Assembly: GCA_964415355.1 (NCBI GenBank)
Contig: CAYPYS010000001.1
Span: forward strand, 215,399-279,398
Reading direction: 5' to 3'
Source of the DNA: an uncultured Planctomycetia bacterium
GTDB taxonomy: Bacteria; Omnitrophota; Gorgyraeia; Gorgyraeales; Gorgyraeaceae
Length of the DNA stretch: 64,000 nucleotides
Positions 837 to 28,305 of this stretch are shown here, piece by piece. Made by a program: the position numbers and the translations under genes. The notes under the pieces are model-generated. The model searched no databases. It had not been told where the DNA came from and worked only from the letters and a program-made list of their open reading frames with translations. Each line of letters starts with the position of its first letter. Positions within the stretch are counted from its first letter, which is position 1.

Positions 837-873
837 TAACTTTACATTTCAACAACGTTAAAGTGTAAAGTTA
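837..873. repeat. PIE copy 1 (37-bp imperfect palindrome TAACTTTACATTTCAACAACGTTAAAGTGTAAAGTTA)
   Basis: Read directly. It lies between the ychF-like stop (871-873, TAA = rc of the element's terminal TTA) and the purH start (819). The arms TAACTTTACA and TGTAAAGTTA are complementary. Confidence 0.9.
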
Positions 874-1872
874 GATGTTGAACCTGATGTTTATTATGTC
901 TCCGTCTTTTACTATATATTCCTTTCCTTCTACTTTCAGCAAGCCTGCTTCGCGGGCCTTGGGAACAGAGCCGCATTTAATAAAATCTTCGAAATTGAGC
1001 ACCTCTGCCCTTATAAAACCTCGCCTCATATCAGAGTGTACTTTACCTGCTGCCTCTATTGCCGATAATCCAGCTTTTAAATACCAGCCACGCGTTTCCT
1101 TTTCTCCGGTCGTGAAAAAGGTGACAAGATTTAATTTCTTTAAAATCAATTGCGAAAGCCGTTCTCTAAAATTATAGCCAGCGCCTAGTTCTTTTAAAAA
1201 TTTCTCTCTTTCTCCCGGAGCCAGCTCAAGAAGTTCTGATTCTGTCTTTCCAAAAAACCGAATAGACCTGATGTCTTTTAAGCTAGCGTGTTCCTCCAGC
1301 GCCTTTATTTTGGTTTCAGCCTCTTTATCCTCGTCTGAAACATTGATTGCCAAAATCAAGGGTTTTAAACTCAAAAATACCAGGCCGGAAAGCAGCTTTA
1401 TATCTTCGTTGCCTAGCCCGGCCTTTGATAAAAACTTTCCGTCCGAAGCGATCGCCTGACATTTCTCCAATATCTCTAGTTCACGTTCTGAGTCAGATTT
1501 CTTCCCCTCTTTTTCTATCCTCTTGATCCTATTTTGTATAAGGTCAAGGTCTGATATTATGATATCCGTAAGGCAATTTTCGAATTCCTTTTTAGGGTCC
1601 TGGCTAAAAAAAGCGCCTATAACACATATAAAAAGATCCACATCGTGCAGGTCAGACAGATCCTTTTTGCTAAAAGTCGAAGTGGATCCAATATCCACAA
1701 AGGTAAATTCAGGATATGTTGCTTTTTTCGACGAAAAAACTTCACGAATCTTATCTATGCGCGGATCCAATGCCCTAAAAACGCCGATGTTACCCGAGGC
1801 GTCTTTATTTAATAAGATTTTAAATAAAGTAGTCTTTCCGCTCTGAGGAGAGCCGATTATTCCTATCTTCAT
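871..1872 (-). CDS. YchF/Obg-family GTP-binding protein (divergent P-loop GSPQSGKTT; TGS-like C-terminus)
   Basis: 333 aa. MKIGIIGSPQSGKTTLF Walker A motif. C-terminal ...TRGWYLKAGLSAIEAAGKVHSDMRRGFIRAEV... resembles the YchF TGS domain. Its ATG at 1870-1872 nearly overlaps the upstream pseudopilin stop TAG (1874-1876), which suggests translational coupling. Confidence 0.7.
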   Translation of the reverse strand: MKIGIIGSPQSGKTTLFKILLNKDASGNIGVFRALDPRIDKIREVFSSKKATYPEFTFVDIGSTSTFSKKDLSDLHDVDLFICVIGAFFSQDPKKEFENCLTDIIISDLDLIQNRIKRIEKEGKKSDSERELEILEKCQAIASDGKFLSKAGLGNEDIKLLSGLVFLSLKPLILAINVSDEDKEAETKIKALEEHASLKDIRSIRFFGKTESELLELAPGEREKFLKELGAGYNFRERLSQLILKKLNLVTFFTTGEKETRGWYLKAGLSAIEAAGKVHSDMRRGFIRAEVLNFEDFIKCGSVPKAREAGLLKVEGKEYIVKDGDIINIRFNI

Positions 1873-1873
1873 T

Positions 1874-2491
1874 CTACGCAGTCTTAAGGTGGGTTACAAC
1901 CTCAAACATCTCGCTTTCTTTGCCTGCTTTATCTTCTATTTTTATCTTTATTCTGACAGCCTTTGGCAAAATACTTTCGTCTATTCCTTGCTCTTCTTCG
2001 ATCTCCTCTTCTGCATCTTCTTCGATTTCAATCATATTCCACGCCTCGCTCCACGTTGAGCCATTATAATATGAAAATTCCAATAGAGCTATATTTTCCG
2101 CTAAGATGTCACTATTGTCCTGCGTTGAAAAGTCAAAGTCAGGATCGATGTCCTCGTTGCGCATTATAAATCTTCCCTCTTTATCTAGCCAATATTCTAT
2201 CTCGACAAGCTCAAACACCCCTCCGGCGGTCGAGACAAAAGAAACAAAACCCACCTCTTCTTTATTTCCGATAAATTTACTAAGTTTATTTTCACTCACA
2301 ACTGCCTGAGAGATCTCCGCGCTCATCTTGCCAACAGCAACCCTCGCATTATGATAACGCTCGCTTCGCTTTTCGCCTTTTTGCCACGATTTGGAAGAAC
2401 TTCTGAAAATCACAAAGGTAGAAGTAACGATAACAGCAAGGATAGCCATCGCGATCAAGATCTCAACAAGTGTAAAGCCTTTTTCTCTCAT
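1874..2491 (-). CDS. Type II secretion / type IV pilus pseudopilin with prepilin-type N-terminal methylation motif (GspJ/K-like minor pseudopilin)
   Basis: The real start is probably ATG at 2489-2491 (MREKGFTLVEILIAMAILAVIV). The track start at 2521 (MLKCKVKVWS) lies inside a PIE copy. The class III signal shape is KG^FTLVE followed by a hydrophobic helix. A GGAG Shine-Dalgarno sits between the PIE and the ATG. Confidence 0.7.
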   Translation of the reverse strand: MREKGFTLVEILIAMAILAVIVTSTFVIFRSSSKSWQKGEKRSERYHNARVAVGKMSAEISQAVVSENKLSKFIGNKEEVGFVSFVSTAGGVFELVEIEYWLDKEGRFIMRNEDIDPDFDFSTQDNSDILAENIALLEFSYYNGSTWSEAWNMIEIEEDAEEEIEEEQGIDESILPKAVRIKIKIEDKAGKESEMFEVVTHLKTA

Positions 2492-2502
2492 ACTCCAAAC
2501 CT

Positions 2503-2539
2503 TAACTTTACATTTTAACATTGTTGAAATGTAAACTTA
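2503..2539. repeat. PIE copy 2 (TAACTTTACATTTTAACATTGTTGAAATGTAAACTTA)
   Basis: Read directly. The stop of pseudopilin 2537..2917 (TAA, rc of TTA 2537-2539) lies in its right end. The next gene's start (2491) is 12 nt beyond its left end. Confidence 0.9.
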
Positions 2540-4071: not shown

Positions 4072-5223
4072 CTACCGAGCTATTAAATCGTCAACTTCTA
4101 TTTTATAGCCATCCTTCATATGTTTTATATCGCAGGCAGAGATCCTATCTCGGACCTGAATCACTTCTATAGAGCCAACCGCAAGACCACCTTTATGGAC
4201 ATCGAAGTATGTGCCTACGTCAATGCCATCCCGCCTGCCCAGGTCTATAACAACAAAATCATGCTCCCTGTTTATCGTAATTATCCTCCCCTTTAAATAA
4301 GAGGAAGAATTGGTTATCTTCTCGAGAGGCGACGTGCGCGTTCTGGTCGTAGGCCGCGAAGAATATTTCCCTTCTACAAAAATAGGCGGCAGCTCGACTT
4401 CAGCAGGCGCCTGATAAGTCTCAGCCCGGATATCGTCTACGCCCATTTTAGTTTTATGACTAGCGAAAGCTACCTTAAGCCTCTCTATCTGATCCTCTTT
4501 TTCTGCGAGGAGTTTATCAAATTTGCCAATTGCTCCTTCGAATTCTTCCAGCTTTGCTCTTAAAAGGCGATTCTCAGCCTTCACTTCCTCAAACTCCTGT
4601 ATTCCTTCTTCGCCCCTGCTTTTCTCTTCTAATAAATCCATGCTCAATGCCTCTGCGACCTGACCCGAGTCAGCAATCTTCTGTTCTAATATAAAATTTT
4701 CTTTTTCAAGCTTTGAAAGTTTTATGCTAAAATCCATATTTTCTGCCTTTAGCTTCTCCATCTCGGAATTCTTTGGCTCGAGTAAACCCATCAGCCTTTT
4801 CAGTTCCACTTCCAGCGAAACCTTCTCTTTCAAAAGCTTAGCGACAAATCTATCCGATTCCATTTCCTTTAGCCTCTTCTCAACAAAAAACTTACCCTTC
4901 TTGACCCTCACGAGTTCCTTGTCCAGATCATCCTTTTCCTTCAGAAGCTCCTTGTATTCTGACTTAAGATCCTCGTTTCGAGACTCTAAAATACCGAGTT
5001 CCTTCTTTACTGCATCAAGTTTTGCCTCTAATTCAGCATTCTTTCTCCTGGAAACAGTAATCTCCCGATTCTGCCTCTCTAGAGTAGTCTTGAAAAGAGT
5101 CTCTAAATCCACAAAATCACCGTAAAGCTTTTCTTTGGACACGAAAAACCATCCGGCGCTGAAACTACTTAGTATAACAAGCGCCACTAATATCCAAAGT
5201 ATCGAACGCAAAGTTCTATCCAT
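4072..5223 (-). CDS. Membrane-anchored long coiled-coil protein with a C-terminal beta-rich domain (MreC-like/pilus-assembly-like); function unknown
   Basis: 383 aa. The N-terminal TM is ILWILVALVILSSFSAGWFFV. About 250 aa of E/K/L-rich heptad sequence follow. The C-terminus ...FVVIDLGRRDGIDVGTYFDVHKGGLAVGSIEVIQVRDRISACDI... ends the protein. The stop is 8 nt before the gspF start, which suggests the same operon. Confidence 0.45.
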   Translation of the reverse strand: MDRTLRSILWILVALVILSSFSAGWFFVSKEKLYGDFVDLETLFKTTLERQNREITVSRRKNAELEAKLDAVKKELGILESRNEDLKSEYKELLKEKDDLDKELVRVKKGKFFVEKRLKEMESDRFVAKLLKEKVSLEVELKRLMGLLEPKNSEMEKLKAENMDFSIKLSKLEKENFILEQKIADSGQVAEALSMDLLEEKSRGEEGIQEFEEVKAENRLLRAKLEEFEGAIGKFDKLLAEKEDQIERLKVAFASHKTKMGVDDIRAETYQAPAEVELPPIFVEGKYSSRPTTRTRTSPLEKITNSSSYLKGRIITINREHDFVVIDLGRRDGIDVGTYFDVHKGGLAVGSIEVIQVRDRISACDIKHMKDGYKIEVDDLIAR

Positions 5224-5248
5224 ACAGCCCTTTCGGTATAATAAGCAC

Positions 5249-5285
5249 TAACTTTACATTTTAACATTGTTGAAATGTAAAGTTA
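5249..5285. repeat. PIE copy 3 (TAACTTTACATTTTAACATTGTTGAAATGTAAAGTTA)
   Basis: Read directly. The RND gene stop (5283-5285) lies in its right end. The coiled-coil gene start (5223) is 25 nt beyond its left end. Confidence 0.9.
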
Positions 5286-8200
5286 GGCGGGATGGTTCCG
5301 GGATTTCACTTTTATTATACCATAAATCCTGTTTTGAACAAATAATATTAATTGCATTGGATTAAAGCTTCTTCTGAGATCATCGAAGATCAAATAAAGG
5401 CTGGGAATTAAAAATAATGTGAGGACGGTGGAAGAGATAAGCCCCCCTATGACAGTTATCGCCAAAGGAGACCATAGATTAGCTGACTCGCTCCTGTCAA
5501 ATGCCATTGGCAAAAGCCCCAGGATAGTCGTAGAGGTAGTCATTACTATAGGCCTGAAGCGGTCTTCTCCTGCCTCCAGCACTGACTTTAAAATAGTCCC
5601 TCGTTTCCTTTTTTCTCTCGTCTTAAGCCTTTCCATTCTAGGAAGATGGAAAAGCGGGCCCCTTTTCTTTCTCCCTCTTAAAAAATTAATCCTGTCCACC
5701 AGGACAATGGAATTATTCACGACGATACCGGCCAGCATAATCGCACCTATTATAACTCCGCGGCTGATGGGTTTTTTCGTGATCTCAAGCGCCAAAACCA
5801 CCCCGATCACTGCCAGCGGAACCGCGATCATTATAACAAAAGGCTGCACATATGACTCGAAGAGGGACGCCAGCACAAGGTATACCAAAAATATCGTTAT
5901 CCATAAAACACCTGTGGGAAAGGCCCATAATTCCTTCTCGCTCTCCTTCAATCTTTCATAATCTCCGCCTATCCTATAATAATAATCCCTTGGGAATGTC
6001 ATGTCGGATAGATTCGACTTTATCCTCTTCTCCGCATCCACAAGCGTGCCCTTTGTAACAAGAGCCGTAATGTGCACGACCCTCATCTTATTTTTTCTTA
6101 CTATCTCACTCGAGCCTATCTGAGGATTAAACTCTGCCACCTGCTCAAGTATCAGAGGATCTCTGTCTTTCGAAAAAAGTATTAATTTTCTTAGATCATC
6201 GAGGCGCTCCCTGTCTTCTTTTCTTAGACGCGAAATAGTCTCTATCTCTCTCGCTTCCGTATGATATAATGTCGCTCTCAAGCCCCTTATCTCAGTATGA
6301 AGCGTCGTCGCTATGTCTCTGGTCGTCAAACCGAGCATGGCTGCCCTTTCTTTGTCGACTACGACGCCCCATTCCGGCCTGCCGCTGATCCTGGACATCC
6401 TGATATCTTCAAAGCCCTGCATTGCGCCTAGCCGCGTCGCAATCGAGACTGAAAGCTCCCTCAATACGTCATAATCATACCCATAAAGATCTACTACCAT
6501 CTCTTTCAAACCCTTTTCCTCTATTTCAGAAAAATAGATAAAACCCCCTCTGTATTTTTCTTCGACTGAGTGGGCGACATTCCGGATATCCTCTATGATG
6601 ACCTTTGTAGAACGCTGCCTCTGCATAAGAGGCAGAAGTTTTATATATATCTTCCCTGACCACGGCTCCACGCGTGAGGTAAAAGTCTTTATTTCCGGGA
6701 GCTCATCCAGCAACACCTCTATCTCCTTCACCATCTGGTCAGTCACATCGAGCTTTGCGCCAGGCTCCAGCTCGACAAAAATAGTAAATCTTCCCTCCTC
6801 TGTACCTATCATAAATTCCCTGTCCAAGAAAAATCCGCGTAACAAGACCAGCGCGAACAAGAAGAATGCTATCCCTGTAGCTATATATCTAAACCTCAGC
6901 CCGTAACCAAGAAATCTCCGATAATAAATCTTCAATCTCGTGAGCGTGTATTTTTTAAACATTAGTTTTTCGGATTCTTTCAGTCGAGGCATTATCTTCA
7001 TGCGGTCCGACAGCATGGGCACGAGCGTCAATGCTACGAACAGCGAGCTTAGGAGCGAATATGTCACTGTCAATGACAGCCCGCTCCACAGCATTCGCGT
7101 GGCCTTGTTTACAAAGACAAAGGGCAGGAATACGATTATAGTTGTAACAGTAGATGCGAATATCGCGAGGCCCACCTCGGATGTCCCGCCAACAACTGCG
7201 CTGGTGTATTTAGCCTTCCAGTCTTTTTTAGAATAATCGATAGCGCTTTTTTTCTTTTGAATATTATCGAGCACGACTATAGAATTGTCGACTAGCATGC
7301 CTATACCGAGCGCAAGGCCGCTGAGTGTCATAACGTTTATAGTTATCTTGTAAAAATACATCAGCGCAAACGTGAGCATGACTGATATGGGTATAGAAAC
7401 GGCTATGATCGAAGTCACATAGGGATCTCTCAAGAAGAGAAACAGTATCACAATGGCCAGGATCGCGCCGTACAGAAGAGACGTCCTAACAGCGACTATC
7501 GCCTCTTTTATCGCCTCAGATTTATTCAAAGTCGACTTTATAAATATATCCTTGTCCAGCGTCCTTTTTAAGCGGTTAAGCTCTTTCTGTATGCTCGATA
7601 TGACCTGGATTGTATTAGCGGTCGACTCTTTTTGAATATATATAGAGACGACGGGCTCTATGTCTGTCCTCGCGTAACTCGTGGGTTCCAAAAAAGAATC
7701 CCTCACCTTTGCGATTTCTTTAAGCCTGACTATGGAGCCATGAGCAGTGGTGGCGATGCCCAGATTTTTTATATCCTCGACAGACTGGAATTCTCCTATT
7801 ATCCTTACCAGAAATTTATTCTTGCCGTGCTTAATATCTCCTGCGAGCAAATTCAGATTGTTTACGCCAAGAAGATTGACAACCTGCTCAATAGGGACAT
7901 TGTACTGATGCAGTTTGTTCTTATCTATCTCGACGAGAATCTTTCGCTCCCTGCCCCCGTATATATCCACATTCGCAACGCCTTCCACGCGCAGCACTCG
8001 TTCTTTCACCTGTTCGTCTACGACTTTTCGCAACATCTCCGGCGAATAATTCTTTCCGGTGACTGCCAGGACCAGAATAGGCATGTCGGATTCTTTATAC
8101 TGTGCTATTATCGGTTTCTCTATCTCCTGCGGGAGTTTTTCTCTTATCTTTGAAAATTTTTCTCTAACTTCGAGCGCGGCAAAATCCATATTAGTGCCTG

Positions 8201-8492
8201 GCTCAAATTCAAGCCAGATCCTGGACTCTCCTGATTTTGAAGTGGAATAGATATTTTCCAGATGACTTACAGAGCTGACCGCCTCCTCAATGGGCTTAGT
8301 TACCATGACCTCTACTTCCTGCGGAGGCATGCCGCCTCTTATCCCGACGATAATACTTATGTCGCCGTAGGCTATGTTCGGCTTTAGATCAACTGGAAGG
8401 TTTAATAGAGACACGAATCCCACCAGCAATATGCCAATAAAAAGCATAGCTATGGTAACCGGCCTCCTGACTGAAAAACCTGATAGGCTCAT
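5283..8492 (-). CDS. Efflux RND transporter permease subunit (AcrB/MdtC/CzcA superfamily), second of a tandem pair
   Basis: 1069 aa. It starts MSLSGFSVRRPVTIAMLFIGILLVGFVSLLNLPVDLKPNI. It shows the 12-TM RND architecture with two large periplasmic loops, and internal motifs such as ...VLDNIVVVENI-like VVLDNIQKKK and AVPLAVIGVVLALEITKKPIS. Confidence 0.85.
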   Translation of the reverse strand: MSLSGFSVRRPVTIAMLFIGILLVGFVSLLNLPVDLKPNIAYGDISIIVGIRGGMPPQEVEVMVTKPIEEAVSSVSHLENIYSTSKSGESRIWLEFEPGTNMDFAALEVREKFSKIREKLPQEIEKPIIAQYKESDMPILVLAVTGKNYSPEMLRKVVDEQVKERVLRVEGVANVDIYGGRERKILVEIDKNKLHQYNVPIEQVVNLLGVNNLNLLAGDIKHGKNKFLVRIIGEFQSVEDIKNLGIATTAHGSIVRLKEIAKVRDSFLEPTSYARTDIEPVVSIYIQKESTANTIQVISSIQKELNRLKRTLDKDIFIKSTLNKSEAIKEAIVAVRTSLLYGAILAIVILFLFLRDPYVTSIIAVSIPISVMLTFALMYFYKITINVMTLSGLALGIGMLVDNSIVVLDNIQKKKSAIDYSKKDWKAKYTSAVVGGTSEVGLAIFASTVTTIIVFLPFVFVNKATRMLWSGLSLTVTYSLLSSLFVALTLVPMLSDRMKIMPRLKESEKLMFKKYTLTRLKIYYRRFLGYGLRFRYIATGIAFFLFALVLLRGFFLDREFMIGTEEGRFTIFVELEPGAKLDVTDQMVKEIEVLLDELPEIKTFTSRVEPWSGKIYIKLLPLMQRQRSTKVIIEDIRNVAHSVEEKYRGGFIYFSEIEEKGLKEMVVDLYGYDYDVLRELSVSIATRLGAMQGFEDIRMSRISGRPEWGVVVDKERAAMLGLTTRDIATTLHTEIRGLRATLYHTEAREIETISRLRKEDRERLDDLRKLILFSKDRDPLILEQVAEFNPQIGSSEIVRKNKMRVVHITALVTKGTLVDAEKRIKSNLSDMTFPRDYYYRIGGDYERLKESEKELWAFPTGVLWITIFLVYLVLASLFESYVQPFVIMIAVPLAVIGVVLALEITKKPISRGVIIGAIMLAGIVVNNSIVLVDRINFLRGRKKRGPLFHLPRMERLKTREKRKRGTILKSVLEAGEDRFRPIVMTTSTTILGLLPMAFDRSESANLWSPLAITVIGGLISSTVLTLFLIPSLYLIFDDLRRSFNPMQLILFVQNRIYGIIKVKSRNHPA

Positions 8493-8504: not shown

Positions 8505-8550
8505 TCATTCCCGCGAAGCTTGTCCCCGTGAAAACGGGGAGCGGGAATCC
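8505..8550. repeat. Nested hairpin GTCATTCCCGCGAAGCTTG-TCCCCGTGAAAACGGGGA-GCGGGAATCC (family B) in the 5' leader of RND gene 5283..8492
   Basis: Read directly. The outer stem is ATTCCCGC/GCGGGAAT. The inner stem is TCCCCG/CGGGGA with a TGAAAA loop. Confidence 0.8.
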
Positions 8551-8560
8551 ATATCTCGCG

Positions 8561-8597
8561 TAAGTATACATTTTAACGTTGTTGAAATGTATACTTA
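8561..8597. repeat. PIE copy 4a, GTATAC-stem variant (TAAGTATACATTTTAACGTTGTTGAAATGTATACTTA), first of a tandem pair
   Basis: Read directly. Both arms carry GTATAC in place of CTTTAC/GTAAAG, a compensatory double change. Confidence 0.9.
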
Positions 8598-8599
8598 CG

Positions 8600-8636
8600 T
8601 AACTTTACATTTTAACAATGTTAAAGTGTAAAGTTA
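8600..8636. repeat. PIE copy 4b (TAACTTTACATTTTAACAATGTTAAAGTGTAAAGTTA), second of a tandem pair
   Basis: Read directly. The stop of RND gene 8634..12437 (TAA) lies in its right end. Confidence 0.9.
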
Positions 8637-11600
8637 TTTTAATGCGTACCACCTGCCTGGGCCGAGAGGGCCGTGGGCTTCGAGCATACCGCGATCCACA
8701 AGCTCCTTCAGGTCCCTGGCTGCAGTAGGCACAGATATATTGAAACGCTCAGCGTATTCTTTGCGCGTGATTTTCTTTACTTCTTTTAAAAGCTCTAAAA
8801 GCTCTTCTTGTCTCTTTTTGAGAAGCGGCAGTTCTTCTGGCGCTTGAGGAGTGGGCTCAGGTTCTGGCTCGGGAGGCGCGGGTTCTGGCGGAGCAGGTTC
8901 TGACAGAGCAGGTTCAGGTGGTGCAGGTGGCGGCGGTGGAGGCAATTCTATTTTTGGCTCTTTTGGCGGCTTTGGCGTCTCTGGTTCCTTTGGCAACTCT
9001 TTCTTTTCTTGCTCTTGCGCTCTTATCTGAGGTTTGTATTCTTCTGCCTCTTTCAGTGATTCCGGCTCCTTTGGCTCTTCTTTTGGTTTCTCTTTCTTCT
9101 TAATACTAAAAGGTTTTACTTTGACCTTGAACTCCCTCGCCTCATCCGCCGATAATTTAATATCCCGATCCCTTTTAACTACTGGCTTTGCAATTTTTTT
9201 TGCTGCAGTCCTTGGCGGCTCAGCCTTTTTAACCGGCATAAGTTTAAAAACCGGCTTTGGCCCAAAAATACCGGCCACGACCAAATATATGCAAGGTATA
9301 ACAAAAAGTGTCAATATCGTTGAAACCAAAAGTCCGCCCATGACCGTTATCGCCATTGGACTCTGTATCTCCGCCCCTTCTGCAATGCCTGCTGCCAGCG
9401 GCAAAAGCCCCAGCACCGTGGTCATTGTCGTCATGAGAATCGGCCTGAGTCGCATCTTGCCTGACTCTATAACCGCTTCCACGAGCTCGACGCCTTTAGC
9501 GCGCAGCCTGTTTATTGAATCAATCAAAATAATACCGTTATTGACAACGATACCTCCAAGGATTATCACGCCGAGAATCACAACGACGCTGACAGGGGTA
9601 CCTGTAATAAATAACGCGAACAACGCTCCGATCGCAGAAAGCGGCAGCGTAAACATAATAATAAACGGCTGCCACAATGACTCGAATTGCGAAGCCATTA
9701 TCATGTAGACCAAGAGCATCGAGAGAAGCAGCGCAAACCTCAGCGACTTAAAAGATTCGCTCATCTGCTGACTTTCCCCCGAGAGATCAATGGTAAAAAG
9801 CTTCTCTGAGTCTCCCATCTTGTGCGACACCACGATCTTTTCCCGCTCAATATCCTCTATCATGGCCTCTATATCCATGATCACTTTATCCAGCGCCCTG
9901 TCAGCGATGTTGGCAGTCAGAAGAATAACCCTCTGTTGATCCAGCCTCTTTATCTCGCTAGGCCCTACGCCTTGACTGATATAGGCGACCTCTGACAGCG
10001 GCACCTCGATCCCGAGCGGAGAATGCACAAGCACGTTTCTGATTTGCGAGAGGCGCGACCGGCTTTCCTTCCTCAGTCTGACCCTCACATCTATCTCGTC
10101 TCCTTCTTCCTTAAACTTCGTCGCGACCACTCCTTTTATAGCAGTGTGCGCGGCCTGAGCTATGGTTCCCGTCGACAGATTGTAAAGCGATGCCTTGTCC
10201 TTAAGCACATTGACCTTTGTCTCTGGCGAAGGACTGATGAGACTCGTGCGGATACCGTATATACCTTTAACGCTAGCGAGTTTTGCTTTGACATACCTGG
10301 AAAGTTCTTCTATCTTATCAAGGTTTTTTCCTTTTATTTCAATGACAATAGGCGCGCTGCCCTGCAGGGCTGTCTTAAAAATACTCTCCTGTAGAATATA
10401 TTCTACCTGCGCTCCCTGCAGATCCAGTCTGTCTAATTCGCGTTTCAATTTTTCTATTGTCTTAGATGTCGGAGGCTGGCCTTTTCCTTTCTCCAGCGTC
10501 ACTATTATCTGAGATTGGTTGGACCCCAATGTTTCAACGCCTTGAGAATAGTCTTTTCTCGCGCTCGAGCCAATATTAACAGCCACGCCTTCAACGCCCC
10601 CTGTTCCAAAAAGTACTTTTTCTATCTTTGCCACAGCACTGTCCGTGGCCTCCAGCTTTGTGCCGCTAGGCATGTTGACTTTCATGATAAATTCGCGCTG
10701 GTCTATCTTTGGCATAAATTCCTTGTCCAGCAAGGCAAAAAGCCACACGCTCACGGCAAAAATTATAAAAATAAGGATCAGAAAAGCCACTCTGAATCTT
10801 AAAATCGTAGGTATGAGTCTTGAATAAACAGGCTTGAGGCCGAATGTAAATTCGCTCTTTTCTTCTCTGGATGCAGCGTTCGAATTCGAAATAGATCTCT
10901 GGGCGCGAAGACCGCCAACGCCGGTCAGCCGCGGGATCAAAGAAAGTGCCACAACTAAAGACGCGATCAGCGAAAACGTGACAGTAAAGGCGAGCTCTCT
11001 AAACAGCTGTCCCGCGACGCCAACGACAAATATCATCGGCAAAAATACTGCGACAGTAGTGAGCGTCGACGAGAAAATAGCTCCCGACATCTCGCTGGCC
11101 CCGGACTTACTCGCGTCTTTTATATTTACGTCTTTGCCTTTTTGGAGATGGGCGTAGATATTTTCAATTACAACTATTGCGTTGTCCACGAGCATGCCTA
11201 TACCGAGGGCCAGCCCGCCAAGAGAAAGCATGTTCAGCGAAATACCGTTGAAATACATGAGGCAGAACGCGACCATGATGGATATCGGCATTGAAAACGC
11301 GACTATTAAAGAAGCCCTGACCCTTCTTATAAAAATAAAAAGCACTAAAAATGCGAGAGCGCCTCCGATAATCGCAGCCTGCATGACCCCGCGTATTGAT
11401 TTTTTAATCAGGAGCGACTGGTCATATATTATGTCTATTTCCATTCCTTCCGGCAGATCTGCTTCTATTTCCTTCAGCCTCGCTCTTACTTTTTGGGCTA
11501 CAAGCAGGATGTTAACGCCCGCTTGTTTCTGCACAGCCACTGAAACGTTTTCCCTGCCATTGTAACGCGAGATGCTCGTGCGGTCTTTAAATGTGTCCTT

Positions 11601-12437
11601 GAGTTCCGCTATATCCTTAAGGTATATCAGTCTTTCTCTTTCCTTTATATCCTGAGCTTGTCGGGGAAGGATCGCGCGTAGCCCTGAGTCCTCGATCTCC
11701 CTGTCTACAACGGTCTCCTCTATATCCGAAAGCACCTGGAATTCCCCCATTGTCCTTATGAGGTATTCGTAAAAATGCTCCTCTATTGTGCCTGCTGGAT
11801 AATTTATATTAGACGACCGCAGAGCCTCAACGACCTTTGTGATGGAAATATTGGAAGCGCGCAGCCTTCCTTCGTCTATGGAGACAAGTATTTCGCGCTC
11901 CAGTCCGCCGGCAAGGTTACACGACGCCACGCCGTCGACCTTTTCAAGTTCGTCTTTGATAAATTTTCTCGAGAGCCGCAGGAGTTCTGAAGGAGACTTG
12001 TCGCCTCTGACGCTCAACGTAAGGACAGGCAGCTCAAACGGGTTGAATTTCATTACTATCGGGTCTGAAGAACCTATAGGAAGTCGTTCTTTTATGAGGT
12101 CTATTTTTTCGCTCACGCCGAGAGAGGCAAAATCCATGCTCGTGCCCCAGCCGAATTCACCGGTGACGATCGAAACGCCTTCCTTCGAGATAGAGCTTAT
12201 GCGTTTCAGATTACTGACTGTGCCGACCGCTTCTTCGATAATCTTCGTAATCAGTGTCTCGACTTCTTCTGGCGCTGCGTTTTCGTATGTGGTAACTACT
12301 GTGAGTTGCGGATAGGTGATAGAGGGGAAGAGTTCCCTAGGAAGGCGCGTAAGCGAGATCAACCCTAATATCAGCGCCCCCAAAAAGAACATGGAGATCG
12401 TAACAGGCCGATTTACTGAAAATTCTGGAAGTCGCAT
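8634..12437 (-). CDS. Efflux RND transporter permease subunit fused to a C-terminal ~230-aa extension (K/E-rich, then a Pro-rich low-complexity segment, then a winged-helix HTH)
   Basis: 1267 aa. The RND core runs to about aa 1035. Then comes a ...KEKPKEEPKEPESLKEAEEYKPQIRAQEQEKKELPKEPETPKPPKEPKIELPPPPPPAPPEPALSEPAPPEPAPPEPEPEPTPQAPEE linker. The C-terminus is ...ITRKEYAERFNISVPTAARDLKELVDRGMLEAHGPLGPGRWYALK, a DeoR/Fic-C-type wHTH. Confidence 0.8.
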   Translation of the reverse strand: MRLPEFSVNRPVTISMFFLGALILGLISLTRLPRELFPSITYPQLTVVTTYENAAPEEVETLITKIIEEAVGTVSNLKRISSISKEGVSIVTGEFGWGTSMDFASLGVSEKIDLIKERLPIGSSDPIVMKFNPFELPVLTLSVRGDKSPSELLRLSRKFIKDELEKVDGVASCNLAGGLEREILVSIDEGRLRASNISITKVVEALRSSNINYPAGTIEEHFYEYLIRTMGEFQVLSDIEETVVDREIEDSGLRAILPRQAQDIKERERLIYLKDIAELKDTFKDRTSISRYNGRENVSVAVQKQAGVNILLVAQKVRARLKEIEADLPEGMEIDIIYDQSLLIKKSIRGVMQAAIIGGALAFLVLFIFIRRVRASLIVAFSMPISIMVAFCLMYFNGISLNMLSLGGLALGIGMLVDNAIVVIENIYAHLQKGKDVNIKDASKSGASEMSGAIFSSTLTTVAVFLPMIFVVGVAGQLFRELAFTVTFSLIASLVVALSLIPRLTGVGGLRAQRSISNSNAASREEKSEFTFGLKPVYSRLIPTILRFRVAFLILIFIIFAVSVWLFALLDKEFMPKIDQREFIMKVNMPSGTKLEATDSAVAKIEKVLFGTGGVEGVAVNIGSSARKDYSQGVETLGSNQSQIIVTLEKGKGQPPTSKTIEKLKRELDRLDLQGAQVEYILQESIFKTALQGSAPIVIEIKGKNLDKIEELSRYVKAKLASVKGIYGIRTSLISPSPETKVNVLKDKASLYNLSTGTIAQAAHTAIKGVVATKFKEEGDEIDVRVRLRKESRSRLSQIRNVLVHSPLGIEVPLSEVAYISQGVGPSEIKRLDQQRVILLTANIADRALDKVIMDIEAMIEDIEREKIVVSHKMGDSEKLFTIDLSGESQQMSESFKSLRFALLLSMLLVYMIMASQFESLWQPFIIMFTLPLSAIGALFALFITGTPVSVVVILGVIILGGIVVNNGIILIDSINRLRAKGVELVEAVIESGKMRLRPILMTTMTTVLGLLPLAAGIAEGAEIQSPMAITVMGGLLVSTILTLFVIPCIYLVVAGIFGPKPVFKLMPVKKAEPPRTAAKKIAKPVVKRDRDIKLSADEAREFKVKVKPFSIKKKEKPKEEPKEPESLKEAEEYKPQIRAQEQEKKELPKEPETPKPPKEPKIELPPPPPPAPPEPALSEPAPPEPAPPEPEPEPTPQAPEELPLLKKRQEELLELLKEVKKITRKEYAERFNISVPTAARDLKELVDRGMLEAHGPLGPGRWYALK

Positions 12438-12459
12438 TATTCACTTTAAATTAATCTCC

Positions 12460-12496
12460 TAACTTTACATTTCAACAACGTTAAAATGTAAACTTA
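12460..12496. repeat. PIE copy 5 (TAACTTTACATTTCAACAACGTTAAAATGTAAACTTA)
   Basis: Read directly. It lies between the adaptor-gene stop (12504-12506, 8 nt away) and the RND start (12437). GGAG is 10 nt upstream of that ATG. Confidence 0.9.
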
Positions 12497-12503
12497 GGGA
12501 CAC

Positions 12504-13685
12504 TTATTCTTCTAGTATATTTTCCTGAACCTCTATTATATTAACGACCATACCATCTTTTAGTTCCTGGGAATAATCAACGACCACCAAATCGTCCTCG
12601 TATATTCCGAAGGAAATAACCGTATAGTCGCTTGTGATATAGTCCACGTCTACAGAGCGGGAAGAGACAACATTATCTTCGTCAACCGTAAATACACTAT
12701 AACCCTCGTCAGTCCTCTCGAGACTTAGACTCGGCACGACTATTGCATTATTAAATTCAGCGACGGTGATCATAGCCCTGCAAAACATTCCTGGCAAAAG
12801 CATGGCGCCCGGATTCTCTACCCTCACTCTAACAGTGAGCGTCCTGGACTTGCCCTCGATGACAGGAAATACATTGTCTATAACGCCCGTAAACGTTTCG
12901 CCCGGATACGCGTCGACCGTGACGGAAACGCCCTGTCCAAGCGCAATCTTATCAATATCTTTTTCAACTATCCCAAGCTCTATAAACACCTCTTTTATGC
13001 CATAGAGCGTAGCAATCTTGTCATGCGGCGTCACAAACTCCCCTACCTCGACATCGCGAGAACCTAGCACGCCGTCGCGCCACGCGTAGAGATCTGTCTT
13101 TACAAGTTCTGACTCTGCAGACTTTAGTTCGACCTTGGCTGACTCGACCTGAAGCGCCGCGCTCTTTGTCTCGAGTTCTACCTCTTCCAGCTTTGCCTTT
13201 ATAATGCCGCCTATATCGTAAAGATTTTTGTGTATATCCAGTTTCTTTTTTGCTGCCAATGCCTGAAGCTTTATAGACTCTAATTTGCTCTTGGCATAAT
13301 CCACTTTTAGCTGTGAGTCTTTTTTATCCAGGCTAGCTATCAAGTCTCCTTTGTAAATAATATCGCCTTCCCTGAAGCCTATAGTCTCTACCACGCCATT
13401 GATCTCGAATTTAAGCCCGATCTCCAGCGCGCCTTTTACTGTGCCCAGTACTGGCAGTTCATCCTTGAAATCCGTAGGCGCAGCCCTGTAACATCTGACA
13501 TGAGCAGCTTCAACAGCCTGAGCCTGCTGGCTGCTGTCAACGATCTCCATTTCCTGCCCTATGTCTTTTGTTTTCTGGATGCTATCTTTTGTTCTATGCC
13601 TTAACAATGAGAATCCCCACACTGCCAAAAAACCCACTACCCATAAAAGTATAAATCCTATGATTATCGTTTTCGACTTCTTCAT
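12504..13685 (-). CDS. Efflux RND transporter periplasmic adaptor subunit (membrane fusion protein, HlyD/AcrA family)
   Basis: 393 aa. It has an N-terminal TM anchor (IIIGFILLWVVGFLAVWGFSLL). Lipoyl/coiled-coil hairpin segments (...KLESIKLQALAAKKKLDIHKNLYD...) and a beta-barrel/MP domain follow. Confidence 0.8.
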   Translation of the reverse strand: MKKSKTIIIGFILLWVVGFLAVWGFSLLRHRTKDSIQKTKDIGQEMEIVDSSQQAQAVEAAHVRCYRAAPTDFKDELPVLGTVKGALEIGLKFEINGVVETIGFREGDIIYKGDLIASLDKKDSQLKVDYAKSKLESIKLQALAAKKKLDIHKNLYDIGGIIKAKLEEVELETKSAALQVESAKVELKSAESELVKTDLYAWRDGVLGSRDVEVGEFVTPHDKIATLYGIKEVFIELGIVEKDIDKIALGQGVSVTVDAYPGETFTGVIDNVFPVIEGKSRTLTVRVRVENPGAMLLPGMFCRAMITVAEFNNAIVVPSLSLERTDEGYSVFTVDEDNVVSSRSVDVDYITSDYTVISFGIYEDDLVVVDYSQELKDGMVVNIIEVQENILEE

Positions 13686-13698
13686 AACCTTTCCTTAT

Positions 13699-13721
13699 GT
13701 CATTCCCGCGCAAGCGGGAAC
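13699..13721. repeat. Hairpin GTCATTCCCGCG-CAAG-CGGGAAC (family B) in the 5' leader of the adaptor gene
   Basis: Read directly. Stem TCCCGC/GCGGGA with loop GCAA. Confidence 0.8.
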
Positions 13722-13723
13722 CC

Positions 13724-13760
13724 TAAGTATACATTTCAACAATGTTAAAATGTATACTTA
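13724..13760. repeat. PIE copy 6, GTATAC-stem variant (TAAGTATACATTTCAACAATGTTAAAATGTATACTTA)
   Basis: Read directly. The TolC-like gene stop (13758-13760) lies in its right end. Confidence 0.9.
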
Positions 13761-15593
13761 GGGCTTTGGGTGTGAGGCCAATCGGAAACTTCCGTCATCC
13801 AGAAACAAAGTATAGCCCGTAGCCCTGTTCAACTTTGCCAATGCCTGGTACAAGCTGCCGACCGCTTCTATATAAAATGACTTCTCGTCTGTAAGACTGA
13901 TGCGCGCCTGCATAAGCGCTGAATACGGTATTTCATTGAGCCCTGTTCGCGCTTTCGCGACCTTGAGTTCTTCTTCCCGATAATTCACCTTGTCCAGGTT
14001 TGCCCTTGCCTGTATCAAGCCTTTCTCGTATCCATAATAAGCATCTTTTATCTCTCTTATAATCGAGGCCTTTAGTTTCTTCAGCTCTTCCTTTGCCTTC
14101 TTAAATCCTATGCTGGCAGACTTTTTCTCAGAAAAACTCTGGAGGTTATCGAGGATCCCTATTTCAACAGACTGGCTCGCTGACTCTGTCCTGGTGCTTT
14201 CGCCGTGTTTCTCGCTCGTCTTGTCCTCTGTATAACCAGCGGATATTGTGTTGCCGCCAAGAGGCTTTGTCACTTTTAACCCAAGATACCAATCTTGATC
14301 CAATTCCAGCGTCTCTGTTTCAAACGCGCCGCCGGATTTTCCGTAAGAACCAGAGAGATCCACCTTAAACTGATCTTTGCTCTTCGCGATCTTCTGCCCA
14401 TAATCGTTAAAATCCACTATGTGCTTCTTTGCCTTGAAATCAGGCCTGTAACCAAACGCCAGATCCATGCACTGGTTCAATGTAACATCGACCTCTATCG
14501 CCTCAAGATAAGTAAGCTCTCCTAAGATCAAAACTTCACCCATATCGTCAGAGTCTTCGATGTTCATTGCCTGCGCGAGAGTCAATTTTGCCATGTCCAG
14601 CTCATTCTCGCTCGATGAGACCTGGTAGGCGATCTGCTTCATCTGTGAATGGACCTGCAAGAATTCTGTCTTTGTGCTCAAGCCCAGGTCAAACCTTTTC
14701 TTTGCCATCTCAAATATAGCCTCTGCGTCTTTTAATAGCTCACGCTGTTCCTTGAGGTTTATGCTCTTTACAATATATGAATAAAATGCTGTCTCTACGT
14801 CCATCCTCAAATCCTGCAATACCCTGTCATAATTTTCCTTTGAGGCCTTCATATTAGACATTGCCTGATCTACCGCATATTTAAGCCGCCAGCCATAATA
14901 CAGCGGGTGCTCGAACTTTATTTTGTACTCCTTGTCTGTGAAATCCTGGGTCGTGCCAGTAGTCTTACCTGTGGTCTCCATGTAATTCAAGCTCGCGGAC
15001 GGGTACAGCGCGCGGCGCGCCTCTCTGATCTTCAGCTCTGAGAGCTCTATTTCTTCCTTGGCTATGTCAGTGGATAAATTATTCTCAAGCGCGATATCTA
15101 TGGCCTGACCAATGTGCAGTTCCTCGGGCAGCGAGGCAGCAAACTCCGGCTCTGGTTCCCTGCTTTCAGTATAGTCCTCGCCAGGCTCTTTTTTAGGACT
15201 GGTCGCAAAGAATATCACAGGCACATCCAGCCATAGTTCTTCGGCGCCCAACTGGGCTGGAAAAGGCTTGAATCTATCTAATTTAAAAGTTGCCCTGAGA
15301 CAGATCTTGTCTAGATTTTTATTGCCTGAGGACTCAGAAACATAGATATCCCTTAGCTCACCCTTAGGAGAAAGAAGCATCTTAAGTTTCATTTCGCCCC
15401 TGGAATTAGACACAATATACCTCTCAGGCTTTCCTATGGCCTCATTTATATCCTTTGAAAGCCCAATTATATACTGTGTTATTGCTTCAATATTAGACGA
15501 AGATACTTGGTAGGCAAAAGATACAGTGCTGCATTGCGCTATAACTATAATAAATACAATAAGATACAATAATTTTCTATGCCTTGTAATCAT
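13758..15593 (-). CDS. Outer membrane efflux protein (TolC/OprM family) with an extra N-terminal ~130-aa domain
   Basis: 611 aa. It has a signal peptide (LLYLIVFIIVIAQCSTVSFA). Two TolC-like repeats with coiled-coil segments are present (...LYPSASLNYMETTGKT..., ...LTDEKSFYIEAVGSLYQALAKLNRATGY). It is the first gene of the tolC-MFP-RND-RND operon. Confidence 0.7.
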   Translation of the reverse strand: MITRHRKLLYLIVFIIVIAQCSTVSFAYQVSSSNIEAITQYIIGLSKDINEAIGKPERYIVSNSRGEMKLKMLLSPKGELRDIYVSESSGNKNLDKICLRATFKLDRFKPFPAQLGAEELWLDVPVIFFATSPKKEPGEDYTESREPEPEFAASLPEELHIGQAIDIALENNLSTDIAKEEIELSELKIREARRALYPSASLNYMETTGKTTGTTQDFTDKEYKIKFEHPLYYGWRLKYAVDQAMSNMKASKENYDRVLQDLRMDVETAFYSYIVKSINLKEQRELLKDAEAIFEMAKKRFDLGLSTKTEFLQVHSQMKQIAYQVSSSENELDMAKLTLAQAMNIEDSDDMGEVLILGELTYLEAIEVDVTLNQCMDLAFGYRPDFKAKKHIVDFNDYGQKIAKSKDQFKVDLSGSYGKSGGAFETETLELDQDWYLGLKVTKPLGGNTISAGYTEDKTSEKHGESTRTESASQSVEIGILDNLQSFSEKKSASIGFKKAKEELKKLKASIIREIKDAYYGYEKGLIQARANLDKVNYREEELKVAKARTGLNEIPYSALMQARISLTDEKSFYIEAVGSLYQALAKLNRATGYTLFLDDGSFRLASHPKP

Positions 15594-15897
15594 GTCTTAC
15601 CCTCGTGAAAAAGAAGTATACCATATGATTATATAATTGTCAATATTGGGGTTACAAAAATTTTGATACAGTTATGATACGGTTGGTTTGTTGGTGAGTC
15701 CCTTAGCATAATGAAGATATGCTAAGGCATGCTTAGGTCAGTCTTCGGAGGCCTCTTTATTTTTTGCGGACATGGTGCTTAACTTTACACTTTAACGTTG
15801 TTGAAATGTAAAGTTAAGCGAGCAAAAAATAAAAAGGAGAGAAAGCCGCTTCGCTGGGAGCGGCTGAGCGTCCTACGAAGACTGGCCTAAGCATGTC
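15594..15897. promoter_or_regulatory. Structured 304-bp intergenic region upstream of the efflux operon, with long inverted repeats bracketing a PIE copy
   Basis: Small hairpins: CTTAGCATAATGAAGATATGCTAAGG (~15700-15727), CTAAGGCATGCTTAGG (~15722-15738) and CCTAAGCATGTCTTAGG (~15885-15901). The left arm GGCATGCTTAGGTCAGTCTTCGGAGGCC (~15726-15753) is nearly the reverse complement of CGTCCTACGAAGACTGGCCTAAGCATG (~15869-15895). Inner inverted A/T runs are CTCTTTATTTTTTGCGG and GAGCAAAAAATAAAAAGGAG. A PIE sits at the centre. Confidence 0.6.
15780..15816. repeat. PIE copy 7 (TAACTTTACACTTTAACGTTGTTGAAATGTAAAGTTA; centre in flipped orientation)
   Basis: Read directly. The central 17-mer CTTTAACGTTGTTGAAA is the reverse complement of the copy-1 centre. 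Confidence 0.9.
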
Positions 15898-17139: not shown

Positions 17140-17168
17140 GGCTCCCTCCTTTTTTAATTGCGCCCTTC

Positions 17169-17205
17169 TAACTTTACACTTTAACGTTGTTGAAATGTAA
17201 AGTTA
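17169..17205. repeat. PIE copy 8 (TAACTTTACACTTTAACGTTGTTGAAATGTAAAGTTA)
   Basis: Read directly. The stop of ORF 17203.. (TAA) lies in its right end. Confidence 0.9.
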
Positions 17206-21269: not shown

Positions 21270-21282
21270 CTCTCTCACCCCT

Positions 21283-21319
21283 TAACTTTACACTTCAACA
21301 TTGTTGAAATGTAAAGTTA
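21283..21319. repeat. PIE copy 10 (TAACTTTACACTTCAACATTGTTGAAATGTAAAGTTA), flanked by CCCC/GGG extending the palindrome
   Basis: Read directly. A second hairpin GGTCTGGG...TGCCGACAGGCA...CCCAGACC follows immediately (21321-21356). Confidence 0.9.
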
Positions 21320-21367
21320 AGGGTCTGGGTCTCTGCCGACAGGCAAAGGCCCAGACCAAAAAATATA

Positions 21368-22087: not shown

Positions 22088-22170
22088 TTTCTCCTCCTTG
22101 TGCATTTTTAAATTTTGCATTTTTAAATGTTAATTTTGCAATGTTAACCTCTTTACTGCACCTCCTTCCT

Positions 22171-24486: not shown

Positions 24487-24522
24487 AACTTTACATTTCA
24501 ACAACGTTAAAGTGTAAACTTA
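24486..24522. repeat. PIE copy 11 (TAACTTTACATTTCAACAACGTTAAAGTGTAAACTTA)
   Basis: Read directly. It directly abuts the GH start codon. The ABC permease start (25375) is on the other side, so this is not a stop-overlapping copy. Confidence 0.9.
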
Positions 24523-24526
24523 GCAC

Positions 24527-25384: not shown

Positions 25385-25408
25385 GTCATTCCCGCGAAAG
25401 CGGGAATC
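25385..25408. repeat. Hairpin GTCATTCCCGCG-AAA-GCGGGAATCC (family B; 8-bp stem, GAAA loop) in the 5' leader of the permease gene
   Basis: Read directly. Confidence 0.8.
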
Positions 25409-26331: not shown

Positions 26332-26344
26332 AATTATATCCGCC

Positions 26345-26381
26345 TAAGTTTACACTTTAACGTTGTTGAAATGTAAACTTA
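26345..26381. repeat. PIE copy 13 (TAAGTTTACACTTTAACGTTGTTGAAATGTAAACTTA)
   Basis: Read directly. A family-C element follows immediately. Confidence 0.9.
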
Positions 26382-26383
26382 CG

Positions 26384-28212: not shown

Positions 28213-28264
28213 TTTCCCTCTCTTCGTAGGGGAGACTTAAGTCTCCCCTACGAAGAGAGGGAAA
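28213..28264. repeat. 52-bp perfect palindrome TTTCCCTCTCTTCGTAGGGGAGAC-TTAA-GTCTCCCCTACGAAGAGAGGGAAA (family D)
   Basis: Read directly. It is preceded by a T-run (TTTTTTTTATTTTTTTT at 28172-28190) and lies just 3' of the giant ORF. Confidence 0.85.
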
Positions 28265-28266
28265 GC

Positions 28267-28305
28267 TTAAGCATACACTTCAACATTGTTGAAGTGTATA
28301 CTTAA
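28267..28305. repeat. PIE copy 14, GCATAC/GTATAC variant (TTAAGCATACACTTCAACATTGTTGAAGTGTATACTTAA)
   Basis: Read directly. The giant-ORF stop TAA (28302-28304) lies in its right end. Confidence 0.9.

Follow-up and report, generated by a model that had tools for sequence, protein, structure and literature searches.

REP sequences, known from Proteobacteria and others, are short (20-40 bp), high-copy extragenic palindromes that lie mostly 3' of open reading frames (ORFs), where neighbouring genes are co-directional or convergent, form transcribed hairpins, occasionally sit inside genes and are lineage-specific (PMC3733652, PMC3116915). The Correia elements of Neisseria have terminal hexamers that resemble those of promoters and serve as substrates for RNase III, and both the promoter activity and the cleavage have been demonstrated (PMC2649163, PMC10969869). 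The BOX, RUP and SPRITE repeats of pneumococcus are small intergenic hairpins that cluster and insert into each other (PMC10969869, PMC3049150). Here we describe a 41-nt palindromic element that recurs in 64,000 nt of DNA from an uncultured member of the Omnitrophota (GenBank assembly GCA_964415355.1, contig CAYPYS010000001.1, positions 215,399 to 279,398, read on the forward strand). This whole stretch is called the window below, and copies in it are cited by the first position of their 29-nt core. A preliminary description of the window had seen in the element a sigma-70 promoter geometry that could give each cistron its own promoter or, failing that, a hairpin that acts on the mRNA. Neither model foresaw the patchy, lineage-specific, insertion-like distribution reported here, which suggests in the first place a repeat that is mobile or dispersed. 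The element is probably a lineage-specific, non-autonomous family of dispersed palindromic insertions, similar to REPs and to MITEs (short for miniature inverted-repeat transposable elements), that is transcribed as an mRNA hairpin. Its anatomy, its covariation, the statistics of its position and its presence or absence among relatives are shown below; how it inserts and at what target, that transcripts run through it and any consequence for the RNA are inferred.

The element resembles REPs and REPINs in size, copy number, placement, hairpin formation, the occasional copy within a gene and lineage-specificity. Its unit of 37-41 nt agrees with the REP description of a high-copy extragenic palindrome of 20-40 bp (PMC3733652). 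However, no unpaired GTAG/CGTC tag is seen when 127 copies, taken from several Omnitrophota genomes, are aligned; the ends, (C)TTAAG or CTAAs, are fully paired. The element is also a near-perfect, A/T-rich palindrome, whereas typical REPs are G+C-rich with a bulge, and its copies are mostly single (8565/8604 is the sole tandem pair in the window) rather than arranged as inverted doublets. Moreover, it coexists in the same genomes with a separate family of palindromes that does contain GTAG.

Like Correia elements, the copies are intergenic, consist of inverted repeats that fold in mRNA, and are present or absent between related genomes. No sequence similarity is claimed, and the architecture is different: Correia elements span 100-155 bp, with 26-bp terminal repeats and a core that contains an IHF site, whereas the element has 41 nt, arms and a 3-nt loop alone. 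The nesting of other palindromes inside copies recalls BOX, RUP and SPRITE, from which the element differs in size and sequence. In addition, SPRITE is like a rho-independent terminator, whereas the element has no U-tract. Rickettsia palindromic elements (RPEs) can sit in-frame inside ORFs, and one copy, 34735, is similarly read through within a giant ORF. However, RPEs are ~100-150 bp long and often intragenic, whereas the element lies inside called ORFs in 2 of ~129 copies. We have filed it as a new family of the general REP/MITE kind, and not as a member of a named family, because it lacks a GTAG/CGTC tag, because no unambiguous target-site duplication can be read and because no autonomous partner was found in the ~0.5 Mb searched.

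Some other identities were tried and rejected. An intrinsic (rho-independent) terminator does not fit the A/T-rich stem and the missing U-tract, and a classical terminator stands separately at 15824-15864. The terminal AAC...GTT prompted a comparison with integron attC sites, but asymmetric variants occur in both orientations relative to co-oriented genes, and what lies between copies is housekeeping genes (0.4-3.8 kb) in conserved synteny. A DNA uptake sequence (DUS/USS-like), which would be a short motif that also stands singly and inside genes, was set aside because arms on their own are rare and come from interrupted or variant copies.

Two arms of one hairpin

The copy from which the analysis started, at 2507-2535 of the window, is TTTACATTTTAACATTGTTGAAATGTAAA. 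It reads TTTACA, a 17-nt spacer and TGTAAA, and its reverse complement has the identical geometry. Exact matches to TTTACA-N15-19-TGTAAA number 12 in the window, against 0.04 expected from shuffles. Allowing up to 3 mismatches gives 14 sites, in the window's 1-27 kb, against 0 expected. Two further, diverged copies at 28272 and 34735 bring the total to 16, of which 15 are intergenic, within ~28 kb of multi-gene sequence. There are no copies past 34735 because positions 28302-63917 are taken up by one ORF of 11,871 aa.

The full unit is ~41 nt long and consists of (C)TAAs, the 29-nt core TTTACAYTTYAACRNYGTTRAARTGTAAA, and sTTA(G). It folds as a 19-bp stem (19-22 bp in RNA folds) with a 3-nt loop. 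In other words, TTTACA and TGTAAA are two arms of one hairpin. A metagenome-assembled genome (MAG), CAYULJ01, supplied 110 copies with the consensus CTTAAG-TTTACACTTTAACATTGTTRAAGTGTAAA-CTTAAG. In these copies the left and right sides are Watson-Crick complements in 96-100% of cases out to 20 nt from the centre, beyond which pairing is at chance (0.28 observed, 0.29 expected). Therefore, this is a discrete unit of 41 nt. A general compensatory extension of the stem into unique flanking sequence, prompted by copies 17173, 21287 and 13728, was rejected after permutation tests (p = 0.9 for the MAG subtype). The window copies do have a weak excess of pairing 1-4 nt beyond the unit (permutation p = 0.009), which is not used as evidence.

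The arms evolve together. In the 127-copy alignment 96.5% of cells are standard pairs, and 7 of the 19 pairs have changed on both sides. Cells with a double change number 80, whereas shuffling yields 30.8 +/- 4.8 and none of 500 shuffles reaches 80. These changes include U-A to C-G (17 copies), U-A to A-U, G-C to C-G (21 copies) and C-G to U-A (15 copies). When partners are slid by one column, pairing falls to 37-51%. The same coupling is visible in the arm variants TTCACA/TGTGAA (17 copies), TATACA/TGTATA and TTAACA/TGTTAA, in which the supposed -35 and -10 hexamers change jointly. Fourteen core positions are invariant, and 9 of them lie inside the supposed spacer.

Folding of the copies as RNA gives energies of -9.5 to -30.2 kcal/mol, with z-scores of -3.2 to -11.3. 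The weakest fold belongs to the copy at 2507-2535, which has two mismatches in the mRNA sense. No U-tract follows the unit: there are on average 2.4 T per 10 nt, and at least 6 T in 3.8% of copies. The hairpin therefore probably does not terminate transcription. Rfam covariance models matched no family; the sub-threshold matches were to miRNA hairpins and fell on other palindromes.

Two subtypes are present in MAG CAYULJ01. The window type, with CTAAC...GTTAG flanks and a TTTACATTTCAACAACG core, occurs at locus L050 (5005, 5247 and 6655), locus L004 (3360) and locus L020 (154), and other contigs carry the CTTAAG type. This may mean that one genome hosts two subfamilies, or else that the bin is a mixture.

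Patchy occurrence among relatives

A genome collection that holds one genome per species was scanned; the taxonomic spread given here is a lower bound. Among the matches listed, the core was found throughout MAG CAYULJ01 (labelled 'uncultured Planctomycetia') and in one copy each in the fetched stretches of Omnitrophota UBA10183 and DRR093005_bin.42. Proteins related to those encoded in the window all bear the name Candidatus Omnitrophota. A scan of IMG/VR for the element gave no match, and no description of it in Omnitrophota was found in the literature. Where it occurs it is dense, with ~110 copies in ~330 kb from the MAG and 7 in a 20-kb stretch at locus L062, or roughly one per 2-3 kb.

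Loci syntenic with the window were fetched via its ATP-binding cassette (ABC) permease. Those whose permease is 81-90% identical (L052-L055 and L057-L061) have 0 copies in 4-20 kb, versus 9 in the window. At the corresponding junctions their genes overlap or lie 1-17 nt apart. The C-termini align to the same stop: the 932-aa gene ends in TAA in L052, L053 and the window alike, and permease 1 ends in TGA or TAG in the relatives versus the element's TAA in the window and in L056. The latter is the closest relative (92%). It has a 64-nt variant of the element between permeases 1 and 2, and an arm plus a nested palindrome at the junction of the 250-aa and 405-aa genes.

A second lineage (P0122; L062-L069, eight samples) was reached via RpiB. 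Comparison of L062 with L028, from the MAG, shows that occupancy differs at 5 of 6 shared junctions, in clean filled/empty pairs with 34-46 extra nt. Similarly, L001 and L041 are syntenic and carry copies at different junctions.

Copies are anchored to the upstream stop codon

Junction statistics were collected from the window and 51 loci, with genes called as longest ORFs. Copies occupy 103 of 249 co-directional, 5 of 16 convergent and 3 of 13 divergent junctions, and occupancy does not differ significantly by type (Fisher p = 0.25 and 0.60). Pfam confirms the flanking genes at the convergent junctions GuaA> <LpxB and AlaDH> <nitroreductase and at two divergent pairs, and L062 adds one convergent and one divergent copy.

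The position of the element is anchored to the upstream stop codon and not to the next start codon. In 36 of 106 co-directional cases the TAA in the element's flank, 1 nt away from the core, serves as the stop of the upstream ORF, whereas the element's stops in the other two frames do so in just 5 and 5 cases (chi-square p = 8e-10). In contrast, distances to the next start are spread over 10-50 nt without a sharp mode, and no single value exceeds 8%. The median gap is 66 nt with a copy (the element plus ~25 nt); without one, genes mostly overlap or lie less than 15 nt apart.

This bears on the earlier statement that the element sits 10-40 nt upstream of each start codon. The distances quoted for it are correct (15, 26 and 17 nt from the core to the ATG at 2491, 12437 and 21269). 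As a generalization it is incomplete: at 36 of 106 co-directional junctions the copy begins 1 nt after the upstream stop, and some window copies, such as 15784, 28272 and 8565, are ~70-190 nt from the next start codon.

The window copies are listed here with two contrasting features. Every large ORF of the window is on the minus strand; the copies are given without strand.

2501-2541: the copy under study (core 2507-2535 plus flanks), in a GspF-type operon between two minus-strand pseudopilin genes (2537-2917 and 1874-2491); the element's flank supplies the TAA stop of the upstream gene (2537-2539), 1 nt from the core; next ATG at 2491; RNA fold -9.5 kcal/mol in the mRNA sense
835-875: copy 3' of a YchF-like gene, 871-1872 (minus strand); the flank TAA is the gene's stop
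5247-5287: copy after an AcrB-like gene, 5283-8492; the flank TAA is the gene's stop
8559-8638: adjacent pair of copies (cores 8565-8593 and 8604-8632) after an AcrB-like gene, 8634-12437; one has compensatory TATACA/TGTATA arms
12458-12498: copy at the junction of a membrane-fusion-protein gene (12504-13685) and the AcrB-like gene
13722-13762: copy of the TATACA/TGTATA variant after the OEP gene, 13758-15593; the flank TAA is the stop; -29.4 kcal/mol
15778-15818: copy in the spacer between transcription units, with a classical terminator on one side and a canonical promoter on the other
17167-17207: copy after the 932-aa gene, whose stop is at the same codon position in the element-free L052 and L053
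19981-20021: copy at the junction of the 405-aa and 932-aa genes, where relatives have a 1-nt gap or an overlap
21281-21321: copy after a pre-existing hairpin 3' of the 250-aa gene; at the same site L056 has an arm and a nested palindrome
24484-24524: copy at the junction of ABC permease 2 and a GH2-like gene; the genes overlap in L052, L054 and L057-L059
25408-25448: copy at the junction of ABC permeases 1 and 2; the element's TAA replaces the relatives' TGA/TAG at the same codon; L056 has the 64-nt variant
26343-26383: copy at the junction of the sugar-binding-protein gene and permease 1
28266-28306: diverged copy, CATACA...TGTATA on the plus strand; the 11,871-aa ORF ends at its flank TAA
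34729-34769: copy inside the giant ORF, read through; the consensus in-frame TGA is TGG
15615-15643, minus strand: canonical promoter (contrast, not the element), TTGACA-17-TATACT with an upstream TG, 11/12; upstream of the OEP gene
15824-15864, minus strand: classical intrinsic terminator (contrast, not the element), GCCGCT...AGCGGC and then a T-run; located after the ROK gene, upstream of copy 15784

A putative TA target

How might copies arrive next to stop codons? The TAA...TTA flanks are inverted and thus part of the palindrome, which leaves TA, or TTAA in the MAG subtype, as the sole candidate for a duplication. TAA or TAG is the stop of 80% of other genes, and short element-free gaps contain on average 0.94 TA. 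A model in which TA is the target predicts ~45% of insertions at the stop, and 34-43% are observed. Our best guess from these figures is a TA target, often the TA of a TAA or TAG stop. Correia elements likewise target TA. Copies would thus arise by insertion at intergenic junctions in some Omnitrophota lineages. Where the TA belongs to a stop codon, the terminal A of the element would rebuild an in-frame TAA and leave the upstream protein unchanged. The inserted copy would then be transcribed within the surrounding mRNA and fold into a hairpin of 19-22 bp with a 3-nt loop. This hairpin, probably non-terminating, could block 3' exonucleases or be a substrate for RNase III.

The likeness to MITEs rests on terminal inverted repeats and on presence or absence at orthologous sites. 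The unit is two inverted arms of 19 nt, and both ends are kept in the 64-nt variant, in which an identical 19-nt internal insert is found in 9 MAG copies, in both orientations, and in one copy of L056. Other palindromes are nested inside copies at L013, L033, L049, L056, L004 and L006. Longer MITEs with the same ends were considered and rejected, the 195-nt composite at L013 being a separate 160-nt repeat nested in the centre of a copy. This repeat of ~160 nt, which comprises several hairpins, is present at L013 (6966-7122) and L020 (4183-4341) with 87% identity. At L013 it occupies the exact centre of the 41-nt element and splits the arms; at L020 it occurs without them.

Promoter, transcript hairpin or binding site?

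Could the element instead be a portable sigma-70 promoter, each copy firing outward in one or both directions to give one promoter per cistron? The geometry that suggested this is real. TTTACA matches TTGACA at 5 of 6 positions, a 17-nt spacer separates it from TGTAAA, and this can be read directly on each strand. However, the symmetry is uninformative, since the whole 29-41 nt are one palindrome. The extended -10 that had been described does not survive inspection: TAAAsT, which does have A at -11 and T at -7, sits 19 nt from TTTACA, so that this register needs a 19-nt spacer, and the TG abuts it with no intervening base. In sigma-70 promoters the sequence of the spacer is free, and A-11 and T-7 of the -10 hexamer are essential. 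At 17-nt spacing neither TGTAAA nor TGTATA has the required -10 bases (in TGTAAA, -11 is G and -7 is A), and the common -35 variants TTCACA and TATACA match TTGACA at 5 and 4 of 6 positions. A sigma-70 scan that required A-11 and T-7 never listed the element's TTTACA as a -35. The few matches within copies combine an inner TTGAAA or TTAACA with a -10 in flanking or neighbouring sequence, and that an inner TTGAAA/TTGAAG could act as an outward -35 with a flanking -10 (three 9/12 sites) speaks for a promoter. So do most co-directional copies, which end 10-40 nt before a Shine-Dalgarno sequence and start codon, two copies at divergent junctions, where a bidirectional promoter would make sense, and the sigma-70-like promoters documented in Correia elements and other MITEs (PMC2649163, PMC10969869). 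Against this, the '-35' and '-10' variants stay complementary, for which a promoter role gives no reason, the spacer is invariant at 9 positions, copies stand at convergent junctions with no gene following, and they are anchored to stop codons at no fixed distance from the start.

Another argument is that canonical promoters are found elsewhere. Textbook TTGACA-17-TATAAT sites lie 3' of many copies (L046 5497, L050 5005, L005 1638, L036 2316, L002 3165). The best promoter in the first 20 kb of the window (15643-15615) is 140 nt downstream of copy 15784, and the ROK>OEP junction runs in the order stop, terminator, element, promoter, gene. The OEP, PilZ and SurA (L028/L062) promoters are conserved in element-free relatives, that of OEP in L052 and L053, and a copy in the SurA 5' leader of L062 sits between the conserved -10 and the Shine-Dalgarno sequence. 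At both divergent MAG junctions examined, canonical promoters lie between the element and a gene. Finally, the orthologous operons of relatives have overlapping or tightly spaced genes that leave no room for internal promoters. A constitutive promoter for each cistron is thus very unlikely, and the resemblance to a -35 and a -10 is incidental to two A/T-rich arms that complement each other and stand 17 nt apart.

The transcript hairpin, which had been the fallback, fares better in that it is compatible with stable folds and with a U.G bias, although it did not predict the patchy distribution. According to this alternative the hairpin is selected by the host as a barrier to 3' exonucleases that sets cistron stability, as an RNase III site between cistrons, or as a structure close to the stop codon that affects termination or re-initiation, and mobility explains only its arrival. 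The stems of 19-22 bp are stable and strongly compensated. Read as mRNA, 37 copies have U.G at the asymmetric position 10/20 and 15 have C.A (p = 0.003), whereas a marker of orientation in the loop alone splits 17:16, which mildly favours selection on the transcript. The copies of one lineage are fixed in eight samples, and the RpiB>GlyA junction is filled in two lineages, each with its own subtype. In an ABC operon, one copy separates the gene for the binding protein from that for the permease. A REP in the same arrangement, between malE and malF of E. coli, reportedly stabilises the upstream mRNA. In Neisseria, Correia hairpins in mRNAs are cut by RNase III (PMC2649163, PMC10969869). However, in close relatives the genes of the same operons overlap and the hairpin is missing. 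Copies also occur in divergent junctions, in the SurA 5' leader and in the gap between a terminator and a promoter, where little transcription is expected. Covariation is equally expected of a single-stranded DNA hairpin that serves as a transposition substrate, and replication-strand effects could explain the U.G bias, because nearly all genes are co-oriented. Host selection as the main explanation is therefore unlikely, yet the hairpin may plausibly have a processing or stabilising effect on the mRNA. A site for a DNA-binding protein (an operator to which a dimeric global regulator binds, a nucleoid or topoisomerase site, or an uptake signal in inverted pairs) would account for the perfect dyad symmetry with half-sites of 13-19 bp, for the density of about one per 2-3 kb and for a core sequence common to diverged lineages, and the window does contain type IV pilus and type II secretion-like genes. 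It is highly improbable nonetheless. Symmetric double substitutions are unexpected for the half-sites of a dimer, and isolated half-sites are essentially absent, unlike the case of uptake sequences (the MAG has 17 'solo arms', which are pieces of variant or interrupted copies). Moreover, close relatives with the same operons have no copy, and palindromes have been inserted into the centres of copies without the copies being removed.

Some observations weigh against a dispersed insertion family as well. The gene calls behind the statistics are longest-ORF heuristics made without a gene finder. No unambiguous target-site duplication can be read, the filled/empty pairs being too diverged in intergenic DNA, and no transposase or RAYT with matching ends was found in the ~0.5 Mb that could be searched. 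In particular, tblastn with an approximate E. coli RayT gave no match in 523 kb, a small part of the genomes, which carries little weight, and no repeated protein-coding segment was found among the loci sampled. The seven P0122 copies per 20 kb are fixed across the eight samples, with no ongoing mobility seen. Filling of RpiB>GlyA in both the L028 and L062 lineages, each with the subtype of its own genome, together with the U.G bias, hints at host selection on an RNA hairpin instead of pure neutrality. Perhaps both views could be joined. In this hypothetical scenario, which is a long shot, a minimal mobile hairpin (~35-41 nt) is targeted specifically to stop codons, restores the stop as it inserts and is moved by an Omnitrophota enzyme, and the host has adopted it as an inter-cistronic module that, next to the terminating ribosome, sets mRNA processing or termination and re-initiation.

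Implications for annotation

Taking the element as a probable insertion family has practical consequences. Such palindromes should not be labelled promoters. The element supplies the stop codon of about one-third of adjacent genes, can fuse or split ORF calls (as at 34735) and flags remodelled junctions. For an uncultured phylum with compact genomes, these repeats document a population of small hairpins that is rich and nested, and the natural filled/empty pairs offer a way to ask how insertions inside operons are tolerated. If targeting of stop codons is true, it would mean that a selfish element chooses the one intragenic dinucleotide at which insertion is harmless.

Other repeats and unusual reading frames

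A second family consists of perfect palindromes of 52-54 nt built around GTAGGGGAs-NTTAAN-sTCCCCTAC, which contain GTAG/CTAC as tagged REPs do. They are present in the window at 2928-2981 and 28213-28264, and also at L033 (~590-650), L049 (~760-830), L056 (~955-1000 and ~4270-4317) and L005 (~4930). They fill junctions that have no 41-nt element and are sometimes nested within its copies. A third hairpin repeat, TTCCCGC-n-GCGGGAATGAC(A), adjoins 41-nt copies at 25386-25406, 13700-13720 and 8505-8547 of the window and at L039 (2778) and L041 (4761). The window has it between permeases 1 and 2 and the closest relative, L056, does not, so that it is itself an insertion. In relatives without the 41-nt element, runs of the G-rich, telomere-like heptamers GGGTTAC/GGTTACA stand between the sugar-binding-protein gene and permease 1 (L053 and L054) and between permease 2 and the GH2-like gene (L053). 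It seems that lineages differ in the small repeats that occupy the same junctions. An A/T-rich short tandem motif (ATGCAAAATT or AAATTAAAA-like) is found at element-free junctions, namely at 22121-22170 of the window and, in L053, between permeases 1 and 2 and between the GH2-like and 250-aa genes.

Near the ROK>OEP junction, at ~15655-15700 of the window (minus strand), direct repeats CCGTATCAnAACYGTATCAA lie just upstream of the promoter of the OEP-membrane-fusion-protein-AcrB operon and beside the gene for a ROK-family regulator. They are conserved at the same junction in L052 and L053, which makes them a candidate operator.

Two reading frames on the minus strand are unusual. In the 11,871-aa ORF (28302-63917), a hydrophobic stretch that resembles an N-terminus, IASPLLLLAMTVVVLLLIAYLIY, comes immediately after the in-ORF copy at 34735-34763. 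A single base change, or a sequencing error, may have fused two genes into this giant ORF. In relatives the giant ORFs at the same position are 15,237-21,048 aa long. A blastp comparison of the giant-protein region around the copy (last 2,400 aa) with the relatives' giant proteins found no detectable similarity, leaving the insertion boundaries unreadable. The AcrB-type ORF at 8634-12437 encodes 1,267 aa, with the transporter domain ending at about residue 1054 and a DeoR-type helix-turn-helix at residues 1209-1253, possibly a further case of ORF fusion or else an unusual architecture.

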